A stretch of 64,000 nt of DNA, taken from contig JAZRVL010000043.1 in the NCBI GenBank assembly GCA_045599105.1, positions 1,103-65,102 on the forward strand, read 5' to 3'. The first letter of the stretch is position 1. Each line of letters starts with the position of its first letter. Below, one piece after another: positions 20,753-54,027 of this stretch. The notes under the pieces are model-generated. The model saw only the letters and a program-made list of their open reading frames with translations. It searched no databases and was not told the DNA's origin. The position numbers were made by a program, and so were the translations under genes. Source of the stretch: Kiritimatiellia bacterium (GTDB lineage Bacteria; Verrucomicrobiota; Kiritimatiellia; RFP12; UBA1067).

Positions 20753-21930
20753 AGTATCATTTAGTAGGTATCGGTGGAGTCGGTATGAGCGCACTTGCAA
20801 CTGCGCTTGCAAAGCAAGGCCATAGCGTAACTGGCGCCGATCGCATGCTTGATTCGCCTAACATAAGCGCACTAAAAGCGCGTGGGATCAAGGTCTTCGC
20901 CGATGATGGGAGCGCCGTCGATGATACGATAGACGAGGTAATTGTCTCTACCGCAATCGAAAGTACGAACTTAACTTTACTTAAGGCGAAGTCCCTTAAC
21001 TTGCCTATCGTTCACCGTGCCACGGCGCTCGCCAAAGCGCTTGAAAGCTACAAACTGGTTGCGGTCGTGGGGACTTGCGGCAAGTCCACGGTCACCGCGA
21101 TGCTCGGCCACATTTTAAGTGAGTGCGCTTTTGATCCAATGTGCGTTAATGGCGCGAATGTCGTGGGCTGGGACGGGGCGGTCCTGTTTGGGCGAGGCGA
21201 GTATGCGGTTGCGGAAGTCGACGAAAGCGACAAGTCGCTCGTCGCTTTCAAGCCCTACGCCGCCATCGTCACCAACTCCTCGGCCGACCACTACTCCAAA
21301 GCCGAAATGGACGAAGTATTCGATAACTTCATTAAAGACCTCCCCGGCCCCGTCGTCGATGCGCGCGGCGAAGTTTATGCGAGCGAAGCTTACGACTTGC
21401 AAAACGCCTCCCTCGCTATTCGCATGGCCGTGAAACTTGGCGTAGAGGAAGCTTTGGCGCACAAGGCGATGGCGAGCTTCCCGGGCGTTGAAAGACGCTT
21501 ACAGCGCTATGGCGCGCGGGTTTACGACGATTATGCGCACAATCCCGAGAAACTGCGAGCGATGTGGATGGCGCTCGCCAAGCGCCACGTGCGCGGGCTA
21601 TGCGCCGTTTGGCGACCGCACGGCTACGCGCCCTTAAGGAAGATGAAAGCGGCGCTGGGCGAAATGTTCAATGAGGTCATTCGTCCAATGGACAAGTTAC
21701 TTTTACTTCCCGTCTATGATGCGGGCGGGACCACCGATAGGTCAATTAACTCTGATGCGCTTTTCGAGCTTATCGACGCAGGCAAGGCGGAGATGGTCGC
21801 CGATTTGGACGAGGCCTACGAGTGGATAAAAGCGCATCAAAACGCTTACGAAGCGTTTGTCACTGCGGGCGCGCGCGATGTCGCATTGCCGCACTTAGCA
21901 AAAAGGATTGAGCGATGTTTGAGCGAATAG
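20749..21930 (+). CDS. murC: UDP-N-acetylmuramate--L-alanine ligase-like Mur ligase (compact)
   Basis: HLVGIGGVGMS, GTCGKST, VAEVDESD, FPGVERR and DDYAHNP motifs. Confidence 0.75.
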   Translation: MKYHLVGIGGVGMSALATALAKQGHSVTGADRMLDSPNISALKARGIKVFADDGSAVDDTIDEVIVSTAIESTNLTLLKAKSLNLPIVHRATALAKALESYKLVAVVGTCGKSTVTAMLGHILSECAFDPMCVNGANVVGWDGAVLFGRGEYAVAEVDESDKSLVAFKPYAAIVTNSSADHYSKAEMDEVFDNFIKDLPGPVVDARGEVYASEAYDLQNASLAIRMAVKLGVEEALAHKAMASFPGVERRLQRYGARVYDDYAHNPEKLRAMWMALAKRHVRGLCAVWRPHGYAPLRKMKAALGEMFNEVIRPMDKLLLLPVYDAGGTTDRSINSDALFELIDAGKAEMVADLDEAYEWIKAHQNAYEAFVTAGARDVALPHLAKRIERCLSE

Positions 21931-24092
21931 CCGGAGAAATTGGGGCAAATCCACTACAAGTGGCGGCGGTAGTCAAGCTCTTGGATGAGGGTTCGACGAT
22001 TCCTTTTATTGCGCGTTATCGCAAGGAAGCGCACGGCAACCTTGATGAAGTTAAAATTGGCAAAATCAGCGAGCGCCTCACCTACTACCGTGAACTCAAC
22101 GAGCGCAAAAAGACGATTCTCAAATCCATCGACGAGCAAGGCAAACTCACGGACGAACTTAAAGCGAAGATTCTCGCAACCTACGTAAAAAGTGCGCTTG
22201 AAGACTTGTACCAGCCCTACAAGCCCAAGCGCCGCACACGGGCGGAAATCGCGCGCGAGAAGGGCTATGGACCGCTCGCGGAGAAAATGTGGAATGGTGA
22301 GGTTGATGGAGGTGAAGAAGCTCTACAATATGCGCGAGATATTATTGCAGAGCGCATTGCCGATAATGCGGATGTGCGAGGAGCGGTGCGTAATGCCTTT
22401 AGGACAAAGAGTATTATAAAGAGTGAGCGTGTAGGTGGAGTAGGCGACGCTTCATCTCCAACTAAATTCGAGCAATACTACGATTTTGCGGAGCCGCTTT
22501 CGACGATCCCCTCGCACCGTTATCTTGCACTTCGTCGTGGCCAAGCGGAGAAAGTTTTGTGGGTGCACTTGGAGCTTGATGTAGAGCCGGTCATCGAGCG
22601 CATCCTTGAAATTATCGGCAAGTCCTCGCCCCAAATTGAGCTTGCGGCACGTGACGCTTATAAACGGCTTTTGGCGCCAAGCGCCGAGATTGATGTTACC
22701 ATCGAGAAGAAGATGGAGGCCGATCGTGCGGCGGTGGAGGTCTTTGCGGAGAACTTGCGCCATTTGCTTTTGGCGTCACCCTTGGGCGAGAAGCCGGTAT
22801 TGGCGATTGATCCCGGGATTAGGACGGGGTGCAAAGTGGCGATGCTGGACTCAAGCGGCAAGTATCTGGGCAAAACCGTCATCTACCCTACGCAAAACCC
22901 GAGCGAAGCGGAGAAGGCGATTGCGCTTATCGTCTATAAATACAAACCGGAGGCAATAGCGGTCGGCAACGGCACTGCGGGGCGCGAGACGGAGGCGTTT
23001 GTGCGGGCGACCTTAAAGAAACTTCACGCCCAACACCCCGAAGTGCCCATCCCCATCGTCGTTTCGGTGAGCGAGGCGGGCGCGTCGGTCTATTCGGCCT
23101 CGGAGATCGCTCGCAAGGAATTTCCCGATCTTGATTTGACGGTGCGAGGAGCGATTTCAATTGGGCGGCGCTTGCAGGACCCGCTGGCGGAATTAGTCAA
23201 AATCGACCCCAAGGCAATCGGCGTTGGCCAGTACCAACATGATGTCACAGAGACGCTACTTGGCGCGAAACTCGATGAAGTGGTGGTATCGTGCGTAAAT
23301 GGCGTTGGAGTGGAGCTCAATACCGCCTCCGCCCCGCTCTTGGAGCGGTGTTCGGGGCTTTCGCCCTCGCTGGCGGCCGCTATCGTCGAGTGGCGCAACA
23401 CCAATGGCAAGTTCAAGAGCCGTGAAGACCTAAAGCGCGTCAAGGGCTTGGGACCGAAAGCGTTTGAGCAATGCGCAGGATTTTTGCGTATTCGGGGAGC
23501 GAAAAATCCGCTCGATAGCTCGGCCGTGCACCCCGAGCGCTATGAGCTCGTGGAGAAAATGGCGGCGGATATCGGACTTAAAGTGGACGAGCTTGTGGGA
23601 AATCAGCTCGCAGTAAAGAAGATTGATGTTAGGAAGTATGTACTTGAGGTGGGTGAGGCGACATTAAAGGATATAGTTGCTGAACTTATAAAACCTGGGC
23701 GAGATCCACGCAAAGAGTTTGTGCGAGCGAAGTTTCGTGAGGATGTCACCACCCTCGAGGATGTCAAAGAAGGAATGAAGCTCGAGGGGATTGTTACCAA
23801 TGTCACCGCATTTGGCGCGTTTGTGGATATAGGAGTTCACCAAGACGGCCTCATCCACTTAAGCGAGCTTTCGGACAATTATGTGAGCGATCCCGCAAGC
23901 GTAGTAAAGGTCGGGGAGAAAGTGACCGTCACAGTCCTTGGCATTGATCGTGAGCGTGGAAGGATATCACTTAGTGCAAAGACAAAGCCAACCTCCAACT
24001 ATTCCCTCCAACTATTCCCTCCAACTATTCCCTCCAACTATTCCCTCCAACTCAACACATCATTCACCATCAATCCATTTGCAAATTTATGA
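21915..24092 (+). CDS. tex: Tex RNA-binding transcriptional accessory protein (YqgF, HHH and S1 domains)
   Basis: TIPFIARYRKE, AIDPGIRTGCK, SEAGASVYSAS and S1-domain FGAFVDIGVHQDGL motifs. Confidence 0.93.
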   Translation: MFERIAGEIGANPLQVAAVVKLLDEGSTIPFIARYRKEAHGNLDEVKIGKISERLTYYRELNERKKTILKSIDEQGKLTDELKAKILATYVKSALEDLYQPYKPKRRTRAEIAREKGYGPLAEKMWNGEVDGGEEALQYARDIIAERIADNADVRGAVRNAFRTKSIIKSERVGGVGDASSPTKFEQYYDFAEPLSTIPSHRYLALRRGQAEKVLWVHLELDVEPVIERILEIIGKSSPQIELAARDAYKRLLAPSAEIDVTIEKKMEADRAAVEVFAENLRHLLLASPLGEKPVLAIDPGIRTGCKVAMLDSSGKYLGKTVIYPTQNPSEAEKAIALIVYKYKPEAIAVGNGTAGRETEAFVRATLKKLHAQHPEVPIPIVVSVSEAGASVYSASEIARKEFPDLDLTVRGAISIGRRLQDPLAELVKIDPKAIGVGQYQHDVTETLLGAKLDEVVVSCVNGVGVELNTASAPLLERCSGLSPSLAAAIVEWRNTNGKFKSREDLKRVKGLGPKAFEQCAGFLRIRGAKNPLDSSAVHPERYELVEKMAADIGLKVDELVGNQLAVKKIDVRKYVLEVGEATLKDIVAELIKPGRDPRKEFVRAKFREDVTTLEDVKEGMKLEGIVTNVTAFGAFVDIGVHQDGLIHLSELSDNYVSDPASVVKVGEKVTVTVLGIDRERGRISLSAKTKPTSNYSLQLFPPTIPSNYSLQLNTSFTINPFANL
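23992..24061 (+). repeat. 13-bp tandem repeat CCTCCAACTATTC x4.7 plus tail CAACACATC, inside the tex 3' end
   Basis: Units start at 23992, 24005, 24018, 24031, with a partial unit at 24044. Confidence 0.95.
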
Positions 24093-24604
24093 AAAAGTAC
24101 ATCTCGGCAAACGATTATTTACATGACAGTTGGCGCTTGGCGGAAAGCATCTACCGAAGCGGATGGCGGCCGGACCTACTTGTCAGCTTATGGCGGGGCG
24201 GGGCGCCAGTTGGAATGGCAGTCCACGAATACCTCCGCATTCGCGGATGGGACATAAAGCATATAGTTGCGTCTCCACCTCCAACTATTTCCTCCAACTA
24301 TTCCCTCCAACTATTCCCTCCAACTCAACACATCCTCTTCCTCGACGATGTATTCGATACCGGCAAGACATGGGAAACGATCCTCAACCACCTCTCTCCA
24401 ACTCCAACTATTCCCTCCAACTCATATCGCCTCGCCACTGTATATTGGAAAAAGCCCTGCAATTTGACAAACCTTAAGCCAGATTGGACGGTTAGGGAAG
24501 TAGGGGAAGAGTGGTTAGTCTTTCCCCATGAGCTTGACGGTCTTTCGCCCGAAGAACTTGCCGTTAAAGATTCTATGCTACACGAGATAATGAATATGCT
24601 ATAA
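24089..24604 (+). CDS. Type I phosphoribosyltransferase (xanthine/hypoxanthine-like)
   Basis: WRPD...WRGG, PRPP-binding LFLDDVFDTGKT and WLVFPHEL motifs. Confidence 0.85.
   Translation: MKKYISANDYLHDSWRLAESIYRSGWRPDLLVSLWRGGAPVGMAVHEYLRIRGWDIKHIVASPPPTISSNYSLQLFPPTQHILFLDDVFDTGKTWETILNHLSPTPTIPSNSYRLATVYWKKPCNLTNLKPDWTVREVGEEWLVFPHELDGLSPEELAVKDSMLHEIMNML
24278..24334 (+). repeat. 13-bp tandem repeat x3.7 plus tail CAACACATC, inside the PRT gene
   Basis: Units at 24278 (ending T), 24291, 24304, with a partial unit at 24317. Confidence 0.95.
24396..24424 (+). repeat. Short copy of the same repeat inside the PRT gene
   Basis: CTCCAACTCCAACTATTCCCTCCAACTCA. Confidence 0.85.
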
Positions 24605-24605
24605 T
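24597..24605 (+). promoter_or_regulatory. Extended -10 promoter of the gcv operon
   Basis: TGCTATAAT ending 10 nt before the gcvT ATG. Confidence 0.6.
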
Positions 24606-24615
24606 ATTTATCACT

Positions 24616-25698
24616 ATGGAAAAGAAAACTCCCTTATACGATAAGCATCTTGAGCATGGTGGGCGGATTGTGCCTTTTGCGGGTTACTTGCTACCAGTAC
24701 AATATGGCGCTGGCGTCATTGCCGAGCACATGGCAGTTCGCACGAAGTGCGGACTATTTGATGTTTCACACATGGGTGAAGTCGTTTTTGAAGGTCCTGA
24801 TGCGCTTAAGAACTTAAACCGCATTGTTACCAATGACTACACCAAGATGGAGGCAGGTCGTGTCAGATATGGCCTTATGTGCTATGACAATGGCACTTGT
24901 GTAGACGACTTACTCGTTTACAAGATTGGCGACGAGAAGTATTTCGTCGTTATCAATGCTGGCAATCGTGACAAGGATGTGGAGTGGATCAAAGCGCATC
25001 TTGAAGGCGATGTTCGCTTTACCGATATTTCCGATTCTATTGCGCAGTTGGCGCTTCAAGGTCCCAATGCGCCTGAAATTTTAAAGAAGCTTACGGATGC
25101 CTTGCCTGAGAAGTATTATTCCTTCCTTGCTAATTGCGAGGTTGCGGGCATTAAAGGTGCGATTATTTCGCGAACTGGATACACGGGCTCGGAAGGATAC
25201 GAGATTTATGTTGACGCAGATAAGGGACCTGCGCTTTGGGATGCACTACTTGCTGCCGGCAAGGAAGAGGGGCTCATTCCATGCGGGCTTGGTGCACGTG
25301 ATACGCTTAGACTTGAAGCATCAATGCCACTTTATGGGCACGAGATGAACGAAACCATCACGCCCTTTGAGGCGGGACTTGGGATGGGAGTCAAGATGTC
25401 CAAGAGTGATTTCATTGGACGCGCGGCACTTGAAAAAGCGGGTGAACCTAAGCGTGAGCGGGTGGGGTTGGAGGTGACTGGACGCGGTATTGTGCGTGAG
25501 CATCAAGCAATTTATATTGGGGAGAAGCTCATTGGCCAGACGACGAGTGGTACGCATTGCCCTTATATCGGCAAGGCGCTCGCGATGGCGCTTGTGGAGA
25601 GTGGCTCGCTTGCGATGGGCGAGAGCGCTGAGGTCGATGTTCGTGGTCGTCGAGTGACGGTCAAGCGAATTGAAATGCCATTTTACAAGAAAGGATAA
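24616..25698 (+). CDS. gcvT: Glycine cleavage system aminomethyltransferase
   Basis: KTPLY, GLFDVSHMGE, SRTGYTG..GYE and GLGARDTLRLEA motifs. Confidence 0.96.
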   Translation: MEKKTPLYDKHLEHGGRIVPFAGYLLPVQYGAGVIAEHMAVRTKCGLFDVSHMGEVVFEGPDALKNLNRIVTNDYTKMEAGRVRYGLMCYDNGTCVDDLLVYKIGDEKYFVVINAGNRDKDVEWIKAHLEGDVRFTDISDSIAQLALQGPNAPEILKKLTDALPEKYYSFLANCEVAGIKGAIISRTGYTGSEGYEIYVDADKGPALWDALLAAGKEEGLIPCGLGARDTLRLEASMPLYGHEMNETITPFEAGLGMGVKMSKSDFIGRAALEKAGEPKRERVGLEVTGRGIVREHQAIYIGEKLIGQTTSGTHCPYIGKALAMALVESGSLAMGESAEVDVRGRRVTVKRIEMPFYKKG

Positions 25699-25704
25699 AA
25701 TAAA

Positions 25705-26085
25705 ATGAATATTCCAGCAAATCTCAAGTATGTGAAATCTCATGAATGGATTGAGGATCTCGGCGCAGGCAAGGTCCGCGTTGGCATCACCGATTTTGCG
25801 CAGCATGCGATGGGGGATATCGTTTTTGTAAACCTCCCTGAAGTTGGCGCAGAGGTTGTTGCGGGTGAGAGGATGTGCGATATTGAAAGCGTCAAGAGCG
25901 TGGAGGACGTCTTTTCTCCAGTGACGGGCAAGGTAGTGGCGGTCAATGAGGCGCTGCGCGATGCGCCAGAGTCGGTCAATAGCGACCCGTATGGGGCGTG
26001 GTTTGCAGAGATTGAAGGTGTGTCTGCGACCGAAGAGACGATGGACAATGTCGCCTACACGGCGCTTTGCGAATCGGAGGGCTAA
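25705..26085 (+). CDS. gcvH: Glycine cleavage system H protein
   Basis: SHEW, GITDFAQ, lipoyl-lysine motif ESVKS and NSDPYG.W. Confidence 0.96.
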   Translation: MNIPANLKYVKSHEWIEDLGAGKVRVGITDFAQHAMGDIVFVNLPEVGAEVVAGERMCDIESVKSVEDVFSPVTGKVVAVNEALRDAPESVNSDPYGAWFAEIEGVSATEETMDNVAYTALCESEG

Positions 26086-26086
26086 G

Positions 26087-27382
26087 ATGGGCTCGTATAT
26101 TCCGAACGGCGATGATGATCGTCGGGAGATGCTCGATAAGTGTGGAGCTAAGTCGGTAGATGACTTTTATAGCGCCGTTCCGAGCGCGATGCGTTTAACT
26201 AAACTTAACTTACCCGCAGGCGTTTCCGAAATGGAAACGTCTCGTTTTGTTGAGGAGCTTGCGGAGAAGAATATTGCTTTTAAGCGCGTTTTTCGTGGCG
26301 CTGGTGCATATAAGCATTATATTCCTGCGACGGTTAAATCGATTACCGCCAAAGAGGAATTCGTCACCGCCTATACACCATATCAAGCGGAGATTTCGCA
26401 AGGCATCCTACAATCAATCTTTGAGTATCAAACGATGATTTGCGATTTGACGGGATTGGATGTCGCTAACGCCTCAGTTTATGATGGGGCGACGGCTGCT
26501 GCGGAAGCGCTTGCAATGTGCCGTGAAGGAAAGCGAGAAAGGGCACTTGTTGATAAGAACATCAATCCACGTCATCTTGCGGTTATTGAAACTTATGCGT
26601 TCGGCAGTGGCATGAAGATTGAAAAAGTCGACCTCAAAAACTTGGAAATCGGCGAGGATGTTGCTTGCGTATATTTAGAGCAACCAGATTTTTACGGGAC
26701 GATCGTAGATGCAGAATCGGTGGGCAAGATTGCGCATGCGGCAAAGGTGAAGTTTGTGATGGGCGTAAATCCTATTGCATCAGCAATCTTAAAGAGTGCC
26801 GGTGAATGCGGAGCGGATGTGGCAGTCGGCGAAGGTCAACCACTTGGAATGCCACTTTCGTGGGGTGGACCGTATCTCGGGTTTATGGCTGCAACAACGG
26901 CGATGATGCGCAAGCTTCCTGGACGTATCGTGGGTGAGACGGTGGACGCTGAAGGTAAGCGCGCATTCGTTCTCACTTTGCAAGCCCGTGAGCAGCATAT
27001 TAGACGCGAAAAGGCGTCATCCAATGTTTGCTCTAACGAAAATTTGTGTGCGCTTACTGCGAGCGTATATTTAGCTACGATGGGTAATGTGGGGCTTAGG
27101 ACAGTAGCGGAAAACTCCTACGCCAATGCACATTATCTCAAGGAGGTTTTGGATGACTGCGGCTTTAAGCACGAGGACAGGGGTGAGTTCTTCCATGAGT
27201 TTGTGACCTCAACGCCGATTCCTGCGACTGTGCTACTTGACAAGCTCGCTAATGTCGGTATTTTGGGCGGCTACAAGTTAGATGAAGCGCATCTCCTTTG
27301 GTGTGCGACCGAGCTTAACGATAAAGCGGATATTGATAAGTTGAAGTTGGAGTTGGAGAGAATAGTTGGAGGGGAGAGATGA
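26087..27382 (+). CDS. gcvPA: Glycine dehydrogenase subunit 1
   Basis: TAYTPYQAEISQG, NASVYDG and REQHIRREKASSN motifs; start at MGSYIP. Confidence 0.95.
   Translation: MGSYIPNGDDDRREMLDKCGAKSVDDFYSAVPSAMRLTKLNLPAGVSEMETSRFVEELAEKNIAFKRVFRGAGAYKHYIPATVKSITAKEEFVTAYTPYQAEISQGILQSIFEYQTMICDLTGLDVANASVYDGATAAAEALAMCREGKRERALVDKNINPRHLAVIETYAFGSGMKIEKVDLKNLEIGEDVACVYLEQPDFYGTIVDAESVGKIAHAAKVKFVMGVNPIASAILKSAGECGADVAVGEGQPLGMPLSWGGPYLGFMAATTAMMRKLPGRIVGETVDAEGKRAFVLTLQAREQHIRREKASSNVCSNENLCALTASVYLATMGNVGLRTVAENSYANAHYLKEVLDDCGFKHEDRGEFFHEFVTSTPIPATVLLDKLANVGILGGYKLDEAHLLWCATELNDKADIDKLKLELERIVGGER
27345..27374 (-). repeat. Reverse-strand copy of the CCTCCAACTATTC repeat family at the gcvPA/gcvPB junction
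   Basis: AGTTGGAGTTGGAGAGAATAGTTGGAGGGG; contains GAATAGTTGGAGGG, the exact reverse complement of CCCTCCAACTATTC. Confidence 0.75.
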
Positions 27383-28761
27383 AATTAATATTTGAGCGTG
27401 GACGCTTTGGAAGAGTCCAGAGCGTAGTTCCTTCGGCAACGACACCTAAACGCGAGCTCCCGATCGCCTTTCGTCGGGTGCGGGCATTGCATTTACCTGC
27501 GCTTTCAGAGATTAATCTTTCGCGGCACTATACGGAGCTTGCCAAAAGGGTGCATGGAGTTAACTCAGGCTTTTATCCGCTTGGCTCTTGCACGATGAAG
27601 TACAATCCGAAAATCAATGAAGCGGTAGCAGCGCTCAAGGGTTTCACGGATGTTCATCCTTTGCAATGTGCGCCATCATCAGCTGGTTGTCACGAAGTGA
27701 TTGCGACGATTGAAAAGTGGCTTTGTGAAATCACTGGTATGGACGCTATGAATTTTACGCCAGCTGCAGGTGCGCATGGTGAATTTACAGGGCTATTGAC
27801 CATCAAGGCCTATCACAAAAGCAAAGGTGAGATTAATAAGCGTACGAAAATTATCGTTCCTGATAGTGCGCATGGTACCAATCCCGCATCGGCCAAGATG
27901 TGTGGCTTTACCATTGTTAATATCCCCTCTGGTAGTGATGGATGTGTGGATTTAGAAGCGCTCAAAAAAGCTGTCGGGCCCGACACTGCTGGATTGATGC
28001 TTACTAACCCCAATACGGTTGGTGTATTTGATAAGAATATTTTAGAGATTACTAGGATTGTTCATGAAGCTGGCGGTCTTTGCTATTATGATGGCGCGAA
28101 TATGAATGCGGTGATGGGCAAGGTGCGACCTGGCGATATGGGATTTGATGTTATACACTTAAATCTCCACAAGACTTTCTCTACTCCTCATGGTGGTGGT
28201 GGTCCAGGATCGGGTCCTTGTGGTGCGAAGAAGTTTTTGGAGCCATTTCTTCGTAAGATGCAGATGACGGCGTTTTATGGTAACTTCCTTGTGATTGTGC
28301 GCGCGCTTGCGTACATCAAGACTTTGGGCGCAGAAGGCATCAAGGCGGCAGCCGAAGGCGCAGTACTTAATGCGAACTATATGAAGACGCTTTTGGAAGG
28401 TGAGTACAAGACGGCTTATCCAGGCTATTGTATGCACGAGTTTGTCCTTACGTTGGAAGCGCTCAAGCATGACAATGGCGTTTCGGCGCTCGATGTTGCG
28501 AAAGCACTTCTTGATCGAGGCATTCATCCACCGACTATGTACTTCCCACTCATTGTTCATGAAGCACTCATGATTGAACCTACTGAAACTGAGTCGAAAG
28601 ACACACTTGATGAGGCGGCAAAGGCATTTTTGGAGATTTTGGCGACGGCAAAGACGGACGCAGAAAGTTTACATCAAGCTCCTCTACGGACATACATCCG
28701 TCGGCCAGATGAGACGCGCGCTGCGCGCCAGCCAATTTTGAAGTTCGCCTTTAAGGATTGA
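27379..28761 (+). CDS. gcvPB: Glycine dehydrogenase subunit 2
   Basis: YPLGSCTMKYNP, SAHGTNPAS and HLNLHKTFSTPHGGGGPG motifs. Confidence 0.95.
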   Translation: MKLIFERGRFGRVQSVVPSATTPKRELPIAFRRVRALHLPALSEINLSRHYTELAKRVHGVNSGFYPLGSCTMKYNPKINEAVAALKGFTDVHPLQCAPSSAGCHEVIATIEKWLCEITGMDAMNFTPAAGAHGEFTGLLTIKAYHKSKGEINKRTKIIVPDSAHGTNPASAKMCGFTIVNIPSGSDGCVDLEALKKAVGPDTAGLMLTNPNTVGVFDKNILEITRIVHEAGGLCYYDGANMNAVMGKVRPGDMGFDVIHLNLHKTFSTPHGGGGPGSGPCGAKKFLEPFLRKMQMTAFYGNFLVIVRALAYIKTLGAEGIKAAAEGAVLNANYMKTLLEGEYKTAYPGYCMHEFVLTLEALKHDNGVSALDVAKALLDRGIHPPTMYFPLIVHEALMIEPTETESKDTLDEAAKAFLEILATAKTDAESLHQAPLRTYIRRPDETRAARQPILKFAFKD

Positions 28762-28762
28762 A

Positions 28763-29545
28763 GTGGCTAATCGTTTCATCGTCGAGGCAGATGGGTTTCA
28801 GGTCCATCACAATCAGGCGATTGAAGAGTTCCTTTTAAGGACGCTAAACAAGGGCGATGCGATCTTGTATCTTTGGCGTAACGATCGCACCGTTGTTTGT
28901 GGGCGCAATCAAGATGTTAGACATGAGTGCAAGGTTGATGCGCTCATTGCTGATGGAGGCAAGGTCGCAAAACGGCTTTCAGGCGGGGGTGCGGTTTATC
29001 ACGACTTAGGGAACTTAAACTTCTCTTTCTTTGCGGATGCGAGCGAATACGATATTGCGAGGCAATTAGGTGTCGTACAACGTGCCTTGAAGAAGTTTGG
29101 TATTGTGGCGGAGAAAACTGGGCGCAACGATCTCGCAATTAATGGAAAGAAGTTTTCAGGGAATGCCTTTTTAAAGCAGGGTTTTCGGCGACTACATCAC
29201 GGAACGATTATGCTTGAGGTCAACGCAGAGGCGCTTAAAAAGTATCTGACTCCTGCGCCCATTAAGCTCGCCAAAAATGGTGTTGCTTCGGTAGTCTCGC
29301 GAACAATTAACTTGAAAGCAATCGCCCCTACGATGAGTGTGGCGGAGTTGGCAAGTGAACTTAAGCATGTTTATAGCGAAGAATATGGCGCAAGCCTGCG
29401 TGAACCATTTTCAATGAGCGAGCGCAAAACGATTGCAACTTTGGAGTCTCGCTTTGCGTCGGATGAGTGGCTATATGCTGCGCCTGGCGAGCTATCAGAC
29501 GATGGCATTGAAGAAATCTTTACTGAAGAATGGAGGAAAGCATAA
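28763..29545 (+). CDS. lplA: Lipoate-protein ligase, catalytic domain only
   Basis: RLSGGGAVYHDLGNLNFS, RNDL...GKKFSGNA and HHGT motifs; 260 aa with no C-terminal domain. Confidence 0.85.
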   Translation: MANRFIVEADGFQVHHNQAIEEFLLRTLNKGDAILYLWRNDRTVVCGRNQDVRHECKVDALIADGGKVAKRLSGGGAVYHDLGNLNFSFFADASEYDIARQLGVVQRALKKFGIVAEKTGRNDLAINGKKFSGNAFLKQGFRRLHHGTIMLEVNAEALKKYLTPAPIKLAKNGVASVVSRTINLKAIAPTMSVAELASELKHVYSEEYGASLREPFSMSERKTIATLESRFASDEWLYAAPGELSDDGIEEIFTEEWRKA

Positions 29546-40975: not shown

Positions 40976-43361
40976 TTCTGGTAAATCTAGTCCAATGTAC
41001 TACGGCTCATCCAAGACGATGGCGTATGGTGGGGGCAAGGACCCTATGTATTATTCGAGCAATCAAGCGTATGGTGGCTCGTATGGAGTTTCGTATGGTG
41101 GTGCAGGTGGCTCTGGGCGTGGCGAAGATGGATCGATCGTTGGTACGATTACTTTGAGCCGTATGCTTCGCGTTATTTCTCAACGCTGGCTTTCAGTATT
41201 TGTCTTTTTATTGGTAGGCTTGGTTGTTTCGTTTGCGATTTATCGTATTTCGCCTACAATTTATGAGGCAACCAGTGAATTTACGATGGATATGCGCCGT
41301 TCGGTGGCGCGTGGACAAGATGCGCTTGCGCAAGCAATGCCAGACTATGGTGTCTCGTATGCGGAGATTCTTAATACGCGTACTCCTGAGTGGCGTTCAG
41401 ATAAGATCGTAAAGAAGATTGTTGATCACTATCGGGCGAATCATCCCGCCTCTACGGTTACCGAAGAAGAGCTCGTTTCTACGCTTGCTGGCTCCAAACT
41501 TGATTTGGTTAGAAACTCGCGTATTATCACTATTTCGGTTCGATCAAAGTCGAAGGAGCTTTGTGCGGCACTTGCCAATGCGTATGCGGAATCGATTGAA
41601 ACATTTACTGACGAGGAAAATAAGGTTCGTTGCGACAAGGCGGTAGCCCAGATTCATGCAAATGTTGAGAAGAAGCGTCGTGAAGTGGATAAAGTAGCAA
41701 AGCAGCTTTTGGATTTCCGTACTGCTAATAAGGTGGACAACTTGCGTTCATCGCGCGATACGCTTTCGCAGTCATTGTCCAAGGCCACTTCTGACTTACT
41801 CTCGTTAGAAAGTGAACAGACGCAGTTAGTTGAGTGGGAGAAAATGCTCGCAGCGGTTCAAAAAGATCCAACGAGCTATGGTAGTTTGGCAGTTAATGTC
41901 CCGCGTGCCCAAGAAATTGCAACTGAGTTCACCGCTTATCAAGATGCTGATGGGGCTTATCAACGTTTGCTTTTTGCTTTTACGGAGAATCACCCTGAAG
42001 TAATCACTGCTAAGAAATCAATGGAGCTTGCAAAGCAGCGCTTTTTGGATGCGGCTGCACGTGCGCTATTAACTGGGCGTTCAACACTACAAGTCACTCG
42101 CAATCAGCTTGCTAATCTAAAAACTCGCCAGGAGGAGCTGAGAAACGAGCTCGCTTCGGCAGAGCAACGTATTGTACTTGCGGAGTCAGGATTAGGTCAA
42201 CTTGAGGCCGAGTTTGGGGTGGCCAATCGTGTGCTTGAAGGTCTTATTCTTGATGAGAACAAAGCGCGCATTGATGCTGAATCTAATAACGAAATTGTGC
42301 GCGTTGGTCGTCCAGCACGGGTTCCGTCCAAGCCGATTCTTCCTAATCCCATGATTATTTTTGGCGCGGGTGCTTTCTTGTCAATTGCTTTTGGTATTTT
42401 GTTTGTATTAGTTGTAGATAATCTTGAAGATACCGTAGTTGACTTGTCGGACATTGAAGGGCGTCTTGCGCTTAAGGTGTTGGCAGTTTTGCCACACGTT
42501 CGTCGTAAGAAACGTGAGCAAGTTGCGAAGTTTTTGATAGAGGACAAGTATTCGCAATTTTCCGAAGCTGTGGCAGGTCTTCGTAACCTCTTGGATTCAC
42601 CACGTTATGAGGCGCTTAGCCATTGCGTGTTAGTGATTTCTACTCAACCCGGTGAAGGCAAGACAATCACTTCAACTTCGCTTGCGATTTCTTATGCTCA
42701 AGCGGGTAAGCGCACTTTGCATGTGGACTTTGACCTTCGTCGACCACGATTGGCGAGAATTTGGGGGCTCACGGATAAGTTGACAAAGGATACGAGCTTC
42801 TCGCATACTTTGCAAAATGCAAGTGATGAAAATCGCCCAGATTTTAGCAAGCTTATCAATCATAGCGAGCTAAAGAATTTGGATGTTATTTGTTCGCTAC
42901 TTCCTGACGGTGTTTCGCCAGCGACAATCTTTGGCTCGGCAGTTATTGCGGATTTCTTTGATTGGGCTCGCGCCAATTATGATCGCATCATTATTGACTC
43001 TCCGCCGTATGGTCTTGTGGGAGATGTGGTTTCGTTAGCAACTATGGTTGATTCGGCAATTATTATGTGTTGCCCAGATCGTACGCACTTTAAGCCAATT
43101 CAATATTGTTCTCGTTCGCTCGCCGAGGCGGGTGCAAACATCCTTGGAGTAATTGTGAATGATGTGGAAGTTTCCAGCGCCAAGGCATTCTCCCCATCGC
43201 ATCATCATAGTCGTAAATATGGTTACGGTTACGGTTATGGCTATGGCTACGGTTACGGCTATGGTTATGGCTATGCGCCAGGCAAGAAGGGCAAGAGCAA
43301 AAAGACGGTTGATAGCGCACAAACCGCAGCAGAGAAGGCGGCATTTAATGATGAAGAATAA
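40950..43361 (+). CDS. wzc: Polysaccharide co-polymerase / BY-kinase
   Basis: Two TM helices flanking a coiled coil; STQPGEGKT Walker A; [14 protein letters not shown]; C-terminal (YG)n cluster. Confidence 0.9.
43218..43274 (+). repeat. (TAY-GGY)n repeat encoding the Wzc tyrosine cluster (10 Tyr)
   Basis: TATGGTTACGGTTACGGTTATGGC... Confidence 0.9.
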
Positions 43362-53963: not shown

Positions 53964-54027
53964 TACCATTTTGAAGCATGCTATGAAATAGTACTTACCA
54001 TTTCAAAGGATGCTATGAAATGGTATT
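53964..54027. repeat. Two tandem 32-bp quasi-palindromic repeats, putative operator
   Basis: TACCATTTTGAAGCATGCTATGAAATAGTACT / TACCATTTCAAAGGATGCTATGAAATGGTATT; the second has perfect 10-bp arms TACCATTTCA..TGAAATGGTA and overlaps TTGACA. Confidence 0.85.

Follow-up and report, generated by a model that had tools for sequence, protein, structure and literature searches.

A genome-wide family of G-free repeat tracts read through as enzyme loops in a gut-type Kiritimatiellia bacterium

Introduction

In a gut-type Kiritimatiellia bacterium the 3′ end of tex and the phosphoribosyltransferase (PRT) gene that follows it contain the same 13-bp repeat, free of G on the coding strand and translated in both genes. 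The locus raises the question of how one short repeat came to stand inside two conserved reading frames, and what it has added to, or taken from, the encoded proteins. The window analysed is a stretch of 64,000 nucleotides (contig C43, positions 1103-65102) from a draft genome of 1.66 Mb in 57 contigs, estimated to be 92.9% complete. Repeats, translations, orthologues and structural models were compared at this locus, and the repeat was then followed through the source genome and its relatives.

Results and Discussion

Structure of the tex–PRT Locus

The region 23700-25100 and the sequence after it carry, in order, the tex 3′ end, PRT, gcvT, gcvH, gcvPA and gcvPB (ORF list, Pfam), with the tex stop and the PRT start overlapping as ATGA. 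The features used below are:

21915..24092, + strand: tex, 725 aa, with Tex_N, YqgF-like, HHH and S1 domains (ORF list, Pfam)
23988..24080, + strand: G-free run in tex, 93 nt, with an array of 4.7 units (23992-24052), the tail CCTCCAACTCAACACATC and G-free C-terminal codons; Tex residues 692-722
24089..24604, + strand: PRT gene, 6-oxopurine-type phosphoribosyltransferase, 171 aa
24272..24343, + strand: G-free run of PRT site 1, 72 nt, with an array of 3.7 units (24278-24325) and the tail common to tex, up to 24334; PRT residues 62-85
24332..24370, + strand: PRPP-binding motif ILFLDDVFDTGKT, intact; PRT residues 82-94
24380..24428, + strand: G-free run of PRT site 2, 49 nt, with the module TCCAACTCCAACTATTCCCTCCAACT; PRT residues 98-113
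27328..27396, − strand: module copy (27339-27371) at the end of gcvPA, C-free on the + strand; final 18 GcvPA residues (DIDKLKLELERIVGGER), including a GGAGGGGAGAG stretch directly 5′ of the gcvPB start codon

Tandem Repeats Finder reported the unit CCTCCAACTATTC with a period of 13, in 4.7 copies at 23992-24052 (100% matches, score 122) and in 3.7 copies at 24278-24325 (97% matches, score 89), and a short third copy was located at 24401-24423, 3′ of the PRPP motif; the repeat that had been read from the letters at these three places is thus real. The window has 11 occurrences of CTCCAACTATT at one mismatch or fewer where 0.76 would be expected, and none of 100 shuffles reached 11. Both PRT tracts are in frame within ORF 24089-24604, the first giving the peptide SPPPTISSNYSLQLFPPTQH, followed by the PRPP motif.

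The tex and PRT arrays have 44 exact bases in common (24018-24061 = 24291-24334), or 56 of 57 when the comparison is extended (24005-24061 vs 24278-24334), and the identity runs into a non-repeat tail, CAACACATC. The frames in which the arrays are read differ, giving LNTS in Tex and TQHI in PRT. Because the 44 bases include non-repeat sequence, the comparison supports, in agreement with the original prediction, that the arrays are related by copying and did not arise by separate slippage.

The predicted RNA fold of both window arrays is 0 kcal/mol and 23900-24500 contains no inverted repeat. An Rfam search of 21000-29000 returned no match at E up to 1, and neither a sigma-70-like promoter nor an intrinsic terminator was found between tex and PRT. 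At this locus the ribosome would read straight through the tracts. Elsewhere in the window there are a TATGGC/TACGGT-type tandem repeat of 6-nt and 24-nt units at 43218-43275 (9.7 and 2.3 copies), unrelated to the CAAC words described below, and a 32-nt direct repeat at 53964-54025 (1.9 copies, 86% matches).

The PRT Enzyme and Its Flexible Loop

The PRT matched Pfam PF00156 with 31.2 bits, and its family profile matched solved purine PRTs (PDB 1vdm, E 1.6e-20; 4z1o, 1.3e-18; also 6igs). Since NCBIfam equivalogs scored far below their cut-offs (20.5 bits vs 150 for HGPRTase), the name was taken only as far as 6-oxopurine-type PRT and the substrate was left out of it.

Twenty-nine orthologues, one each from 29 further genomes of the genus and order, were aligned with the PRT. 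All 29 contain about 35 conserved residues (LKCxSYxGIGxxxGxVxF...) between the invariant His58 and the strand preceding the PRPP motif, a stretch that in the window PRT comprises 23 residues, of which 20 are repeat-encoded. In a wider comparison, restricted to the best 120 of 310 homologues from a large protein collection, both anchor motifs were present in 119. Among these, 111 of 119 homologues have a spacing of 59 from WRGG to DD, and the window PRT, with 47, has the shortest of the set; the Ser-Tyr pair is present in 117 of 119 and missing from the window PRT, as from one other protein; and the second spacing is 21 in 112 of 119, compared with 25 here. Relative to the family norm, site 1 is therefore shorter by 12 aa and site 2 longer by 4 aa. 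Judged from these alignments, the tract at site 1 replaces a conserved flexible loop and that at site 2 lengthens a surface loop by four residues. Of the original description of two in-frame loops of the PRT, the reading frames stand, but site 1 is not an added loop: it takes the place of conserved sequence, so that the alternative between insertion and replacement is settled there in favour of replacement, 12 residues shorter than in the orthologues. Distant PRT orthologues do not encode the repeat peptides.

In an alignment of 25 sequences that includes the window PRT, all 28 invariant columns lie outside both tracts, and the PRPP motif columns L83, D86, D87, F89, D90 and G92 are among the invariant ones; the conserved PRT core is therefore intact and the gene does not appear to be decaying. 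The Ser-Tyr flexible loop before the PRPP motif has a role in HGPRT catalysis. Fold and PRPP motif are retained in the window PRT; with the conserved loop and its Ser-Tyr pair lost, catalysis is probably weakened or altered. Given the spacing of 47 instead of 59 and the missing pair, the enzyme may even be non-functional, which would weaken the view that the tract is tolerated because it is harmless. The AlphaFold2 model of the window PRT has a mean pLDDT of 89.1, with confidence falling at the tracts and at the C-terminus and nowhere else (56-66 at residues 61-80, below 50 at 65-70, and 69 at 101-110). The model of an orthologue has a mean of 93.0, and its native loop segment is likewise its least confident region (70-82).

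The other PF00156 proteins of the source genome include pyrE, prs and one ComF-like protein, and there is a fourth match with an in-frame stop; with these paralogues, the window PRT is the only purine-type PRT recognised in the genome. The match with the stop, at C57:25342-25635 (45.8 bits, in-frame TAA), is possibly a broken PRT gene. PurL is present, so de novo purine synthesis exists. The window PRT forms a singleton cluster in the protein search, its next relative having 58% identity, and two exact-flank scans of metagenome contigs gave no match to the window locus.

The Tex Linker

In all five relatives compared, Tex ends in F.CNPFANL, preceded by a variable Gly/Ala/Arg-rich or Ser-rich linker. 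The window Tex ends in SFTINPFANL, keeping NPFANL, and the repeat-encoded stretch occupies the linker between the S1 domain and this end. Counted from a conserved Lys, the length is 37 residues here and 36 in the relatives. On this alignment the Tex "tail" is an internal linker and the array not a free tail, and because a conserved C-terminus stands 3′ of it, the array must stay in frame.

The tex bases directly 3′ of the repeat (AAC ACA TCA TTC) align with native codons of the relatives (AAC GCA .. GCA TTC in G077), and the same CAACAC stands before the native ATC in PRT. Since the tex tail CAACACATC aligns with native codons, the tex array, which lies 273 bp upstream, is the most likely template of the copy at PRT site 1, the junction being at ATC.

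A Genome-Wide Family of Strand-Pure Tracts

A census was made of G-free runs that are 30 nt or longer and contain three or more CAAC words. The source genome contains 36 such tracts, compared with 4-6 in five local shuffles, on at least 15 contigs; the family they form has no G on one strand and is built with the CAAC words CTCCAACT, CTACAACT and CCTCAACC. Sorting by Pfam results and translation maps gave the following classes:

Inside conserved genes: 13 tracts in 10 genes (IleRS, GT2 and GT4 glycosyltransferases, RNase III, a giant surface protein, Tex, PRT (2), GcvPA, TonB (2), ClpX-type AAA+ ATPase (2))
Less certain coding positions: 4 tracts (23S-IVS protein tail, subtilase N-terminal region (2), a hypothetical ORF)
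Intergenic: 9 tracts
Remaining: 10 tracts, mostly short (eight of 30-40 nt), a number close to the chance expectation

The copies asked for by a genome-wide search thus exist well beyond this locus, and the proposal of a dispersed element that sits inside coding sequence and makes new peptide is supported. Both orientations occur in genes, a G-free sense strand giving a P/T/S/Q/N-rich peptide and a C-free sense strand an E/K/R/V/G-rich one. An exact 24-mer, CCTCAACCTTCTCCCTCAACCTCT, was found in three unrelated genes (IleRS, GT2 glycosyltransferase and ClpX-type ATPase; reversed control 0), and in all three it is read as ERLREKVE, its only open frame. Copies lie deep within genes, for example at residue 214 of IleRS and residue 221 of the ClpX-type ATPase. 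Intergenic members stand directly upstream of start codons or form long hairpin-forming inverted pairs, single arms of which also occur inside genes. For one intergenic pair, the C54 element, the predicted folding energy is −49.9 kcal/mol (z −6.6), matched by none of 200 shuffles.

Several further observations were made in the course of the census. At C45:29981-30496 a TonB-like linker is formed from an inverted tract pair, the C-free arm coding for residues 21-55 and the G-free arm for 67-86. The whole 2.4-kb contig C23 (1-2374) consists of a 23S-rRNA-intervening-sequence protein gene between CAAC tracts on both strands, its last residues being tract-encoded. A second dispersed G-free motif, CCTTCCATCTACTATTTTC, often preceded by TTTTTATCTCACC, has nine copies (eight exact; reversed control 0), at sites including C13:1914-1932, C13:40264-40282, C14:32252-32270, C22:71816-71834 and C36:9436-9454. 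The commonest 12-mers common to G-free runs are TATTATACCAAA and TATTATACCATA, in up to 19 runs; their reverse complement, TGGTATAATA, looks like extended −10 promoters.

Distribution and Turnover in Related Genomes

At one mismatch or fewer, TCCAACTCCAACTATT is present in 18 of 61 genomes of the genus, a count that includes the source genome, and the controls gave almost no hits. The sequence belongs to a conserved module, about 35 nt long, that is often found near start codons. The closest genomes, G077 and G078, are Kiritimatiellia MAGs of 1.7-1.8 Mb. Both carry family members at both PRT sites, different from those of the window: site 1 is a C-free array in G077 and a whole inverted pair in G078, closely resembling the intergenic C54 element of the source genome, and site 2 is in both a G-free array of 7-nt-type units. 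These 7-nt-type arrays differ between the two genomes. Both PRTs keep IKCSSYxGIG, which the window PRT has lost, and more distant members of the genus have the native loop. Contig breaks inside PRT in genomes G001, G012 and G004 were considered as possibly repeat-caused and discarded, as they lie in native sequence and the G001 ends merely overlap.

Tract and native sequence were compared with G077 and G078 at eight sites, and at all eight the tract had replaced native residues. At six of the eight both relatives have ordinary sequence, within flanking proteins that are 68-89% identical. The length changes at the sites other than PRT are:

ClpX-type gene, two tracts: +9 and +2 aa
RNase III: +7 aa
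IleRS: +5 aa
GcvPA tail: +2 aa
Tex linker: +1 aa

At the PRT locus the flanks of G077 and G078 are identical at 462 of 495 positions (93%), compared with 102 of 152 tract columns (67%; 37 gap columns). Turnover is thus much faster in the tracts than in the surrounding genes. Every tract seen in the three genomes is in frame, as the proposed check of frame preservation had asked.

The possibility that the tracts are an assembly or binning artefact of a metagenome-assembled genome was raised by the 57-contig draft state of the source genome. The tracts have unique flanks and open frames throughout, two MAGs deposited independently of each other carry members of the family at both PRT sites, and tracts of the family occur in 17 further genomes of the genus; such an origin is hardly credible.

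The comparison of native and tract sequence also disposed of hypermutation, by which C-free tracts would be native sequence edited from C to T. A few flanking codons in RNase III fit this idea (CCC to TTT, AAC to AAT), and it is ruled out by the exact modules common to several genes and by several C to G changes.

A selected DNA or RNA signal would be a different explanation for the tracts: they would serve as structure-free leaders, ribosome standby sites, GGAGG Shine-Dalgarno or CCTCC anti-Shine-Dalgarno sequences or protein-binding sites, and the coding copies would be spill-over. In several genomes many copies do lie immediately 5′ of start codons, there are 36 nt from the end of the tex array to the PRT start, the C-free copy before gcvPB contains a GGAGG stretch, the arrays are predicted to be fully unstructured as RNA, and the module is conserved across the genus. 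However, the orientation to the downstream gene is inconsistent, G-free in some cases and C-free in others; tracts at the same site differ strongly between two close relatives, unlike a conserved signal; and the copies at IleRS residue 214 and ClpX-type ATPase residue 221 have no start codon nearby. A signalling role as the general explanation is accordingly considered improbable. The conservation of modules between genomes could nevertheless mean that they have a function of their own rather than being a tolerated by-product.

A Possible Frame Switch

Contingency loci achieve phase variation by slipped-strand mispairing, and the original prediction had envisaged a possible ON/OFF switch for purine salvage. 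In a contingency locus of this kind, 13-bp slippage would turn PRT on and off and would also alter the Tex C-terminus. The unit length is not a multiple of three, and the alternative PRT frames do stop at 24467 and 24477, as had been stated (ORF list). In silico, removal of one unit from the PRT array leaves 121 aa and addition of one leaves 133 aa, both truncated, and one unit added to the tex array puts Tex into the PRT frame, so that translation would read on as a Tex-PRT fusion. Since PurL provides for de novo purine synthesis, the cell could survive the loss of salvage. Several points speak against a switch. The arrays hold no more than 3.7-4.7 units, PRT does not belong to the surface or restriction-type genes, every tract seen in the three genomes is in frame, and the Tex array precedes the conserved NPFANL end, which a slip would destroy. 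The same family is moreover in frame in IleRS, the ClpX-type ATPase, RNase III and GcvPA, where switching is implausible, and its presence in essential genes argues against switching as its purpose. A contingency locus is thus a poor candidate for explaining the arrays.

Origin and Spread of the Tracts

The exact modules in unrelated genes, the conserved non-repeat cores common to several genomes and the long hairpins of intergenic members (C54, −49.9 kcal/mol) would also be expected of a non-autonomous mobile element that resembles a MITE, REP or RPE and is mobilised in trans, for instance by a Y1 (RAYT-like) transposase, the coding copies being insertions trimmed later. Two Y1_Tnp matches above the Pfam cut-off are present in the source genome. 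However, the surroundings of both Y1 genes are free of CAAC tracts for about 1 kb, neither a terminal inverted repeat nor a target duplication was seen at the eight compared sites, the window arrays are without an inverted repeat, and the tracts replace native residues instead of adding to them. This origin seems unlikely. The two genes with Y1 (IS200/RAYT-like) transposase domains are located at C41:41950-42825 and C57:31627-32661.

A reverse transcriptase domain (RVT_1) had no match in the source genome (92.9% complete). The suggested search for a linked transposase or reverse transcriptase thus revealed none, there being no RVT_1 and the two Y1 genes not adjoining tracts. A diversity-generating retroelement was dismissed on the same absence of RVT_1, and the gene on C23 matches the 23S-rRNA-IVS protein strongly and bAvd only weakly (E 2.5e-07).

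The explanation we favour, and hold to be probable, is that these are fast-turnover repeats, spread by slippage and short templated copying and tolerated only in flexible protein segments. The tracts would grow and shrink by slippage. Gene conversion or short templated repair at microhomologies would overwrite one tract with another and carry copies to new sites; a dedicated enzyme would apparently be unnecessary for their spread. They would survive only where the frame is kept and the peptide takes the place of a flexible linker or loop. That the native ClpX-type and IleRS sites resemble module ends (GAGAGG..., ...GGAGAT) suggests that the copying is primed by microhomology. The compared sites showed neither a target-site duplication nor a terminal inverted repeat, nor any defined element end.

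A bolder version is that Kiritimatiellia possess an active, microhomology-guided "copy-and-overwrite" process, free of transposase and reverse transcriptase, which lays strand-pure modules onto flexible protein parts and gene leaders, so that essential enzymes have their loops and linkers continually re-drawn from a small genomic lexicon. It would also provide a frame switch at this locus, where a change of one unit would truncate PRT and an extra unit in tex would fuse Tex to it. This would be a long shot. Fast-turnover repeats tolerated in flexible segments remain the preferred account.

Comparison with Known Systems

A literature search on Kiritimatiellia together with heptamer or tandem repeats found no paper describing the phenomenon. 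It would be the second clear bacterial case, after Rickettsia, of repeat DNA within housekeeping genes, with the difference that flexible segments are replaced at nearly constant length and not by insertion of a palindrome. The repeat-encoded peptide at the PRT flexible-loop region in three related genomes would provide a natural experiment on enzyme rewriting. In practical terms, the tracts make sequences look more diverged than they are, can disrupt assemblies and alignments, and can lead to wrongly annotated gene ends.

Rickettsia palindromic elements (RPE) were reportedly described by Ogata and colleagues in 2000 as "selfish DNA in protein-coding genes". They are palindromes of about 100-150 bp that add residues. 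Like RPE, the present tracts are a dispersed family found between genes and in frame inside conserved genes, translated, in tolerant flexible or surface parts where the fold is not lost. Unlike RPE, they are 30-100 nt long, G-free on one strand and often tandem (13 = 7+6, or 6-7 nt words); the window arrays are not palindromic (no inverted repeats, 0 kcal/mol), hairpins being confined to some intergenic relatives; native residues are replaced here; and the phylum is another one, with no sequence likeness. The analogy with RPE drawn in the original prediction is thus apt in effect, the tracts being in frame and in flexible or surface segments, but not as to membership, and "invades" is inexact, as all eight sites replace at nearly the same length.

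Contingency loci have in common with the arrays a tandem repeat within an ORF, a unit length that is not a multiple of three and truncation after a one-unit change. They differ in the low copy number here, in the housekeeping nature of the genes and in the dispersed copies, which are not locus-specific arrays.

REP sequences are extragenic. REP/BIME elements are associated with RAYT transposases (PMC3733652). The family resembles REP/BIME in being made up in part of small dispersed hairpin-forming intergenic repeats in a genome with Y1-transposase-like genes, and is unlike it in that no tract flanks the Y1 genes and coding copies are common. Unlike a MITE, it has neither terminal inverted repeats nor target-site duplications visible at the compared sites or the window arrays.

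Cyanobacterial STRR sequences are a further case beside the bacterial heptameric simple-sequence repeats. According to the passages on heptameric arrays in Rehm et al. 2015 (PMC4692102), the repeats are GGGAATC in Xanthomonas and GGGGA(T/C)T in Nostoc, and are G-rich, quadruplex-forming and under-represented in coding regions. Like the heptamer arrays as described there (PMC4692102), the present tracts are short-unit tandem arrays spread genome-wide, with a variable number of units, near gene starts and ends and with unproven function; unlike them, they are G-free or C-free, predicted to be unstructured, inside conserved genes in 13 of 36 cases, and built of modules common to several genes. 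The unit here is 13 nt, built from 6- and 7-nt CAAC words, compared with the 5-11 nt expected of heptanucleotide-type arrays. The repeat family is thus RPE-like in effect without belonging to the RPE, and heptamer-array-like in make-up, probably without belonging to the heptamer arrays.
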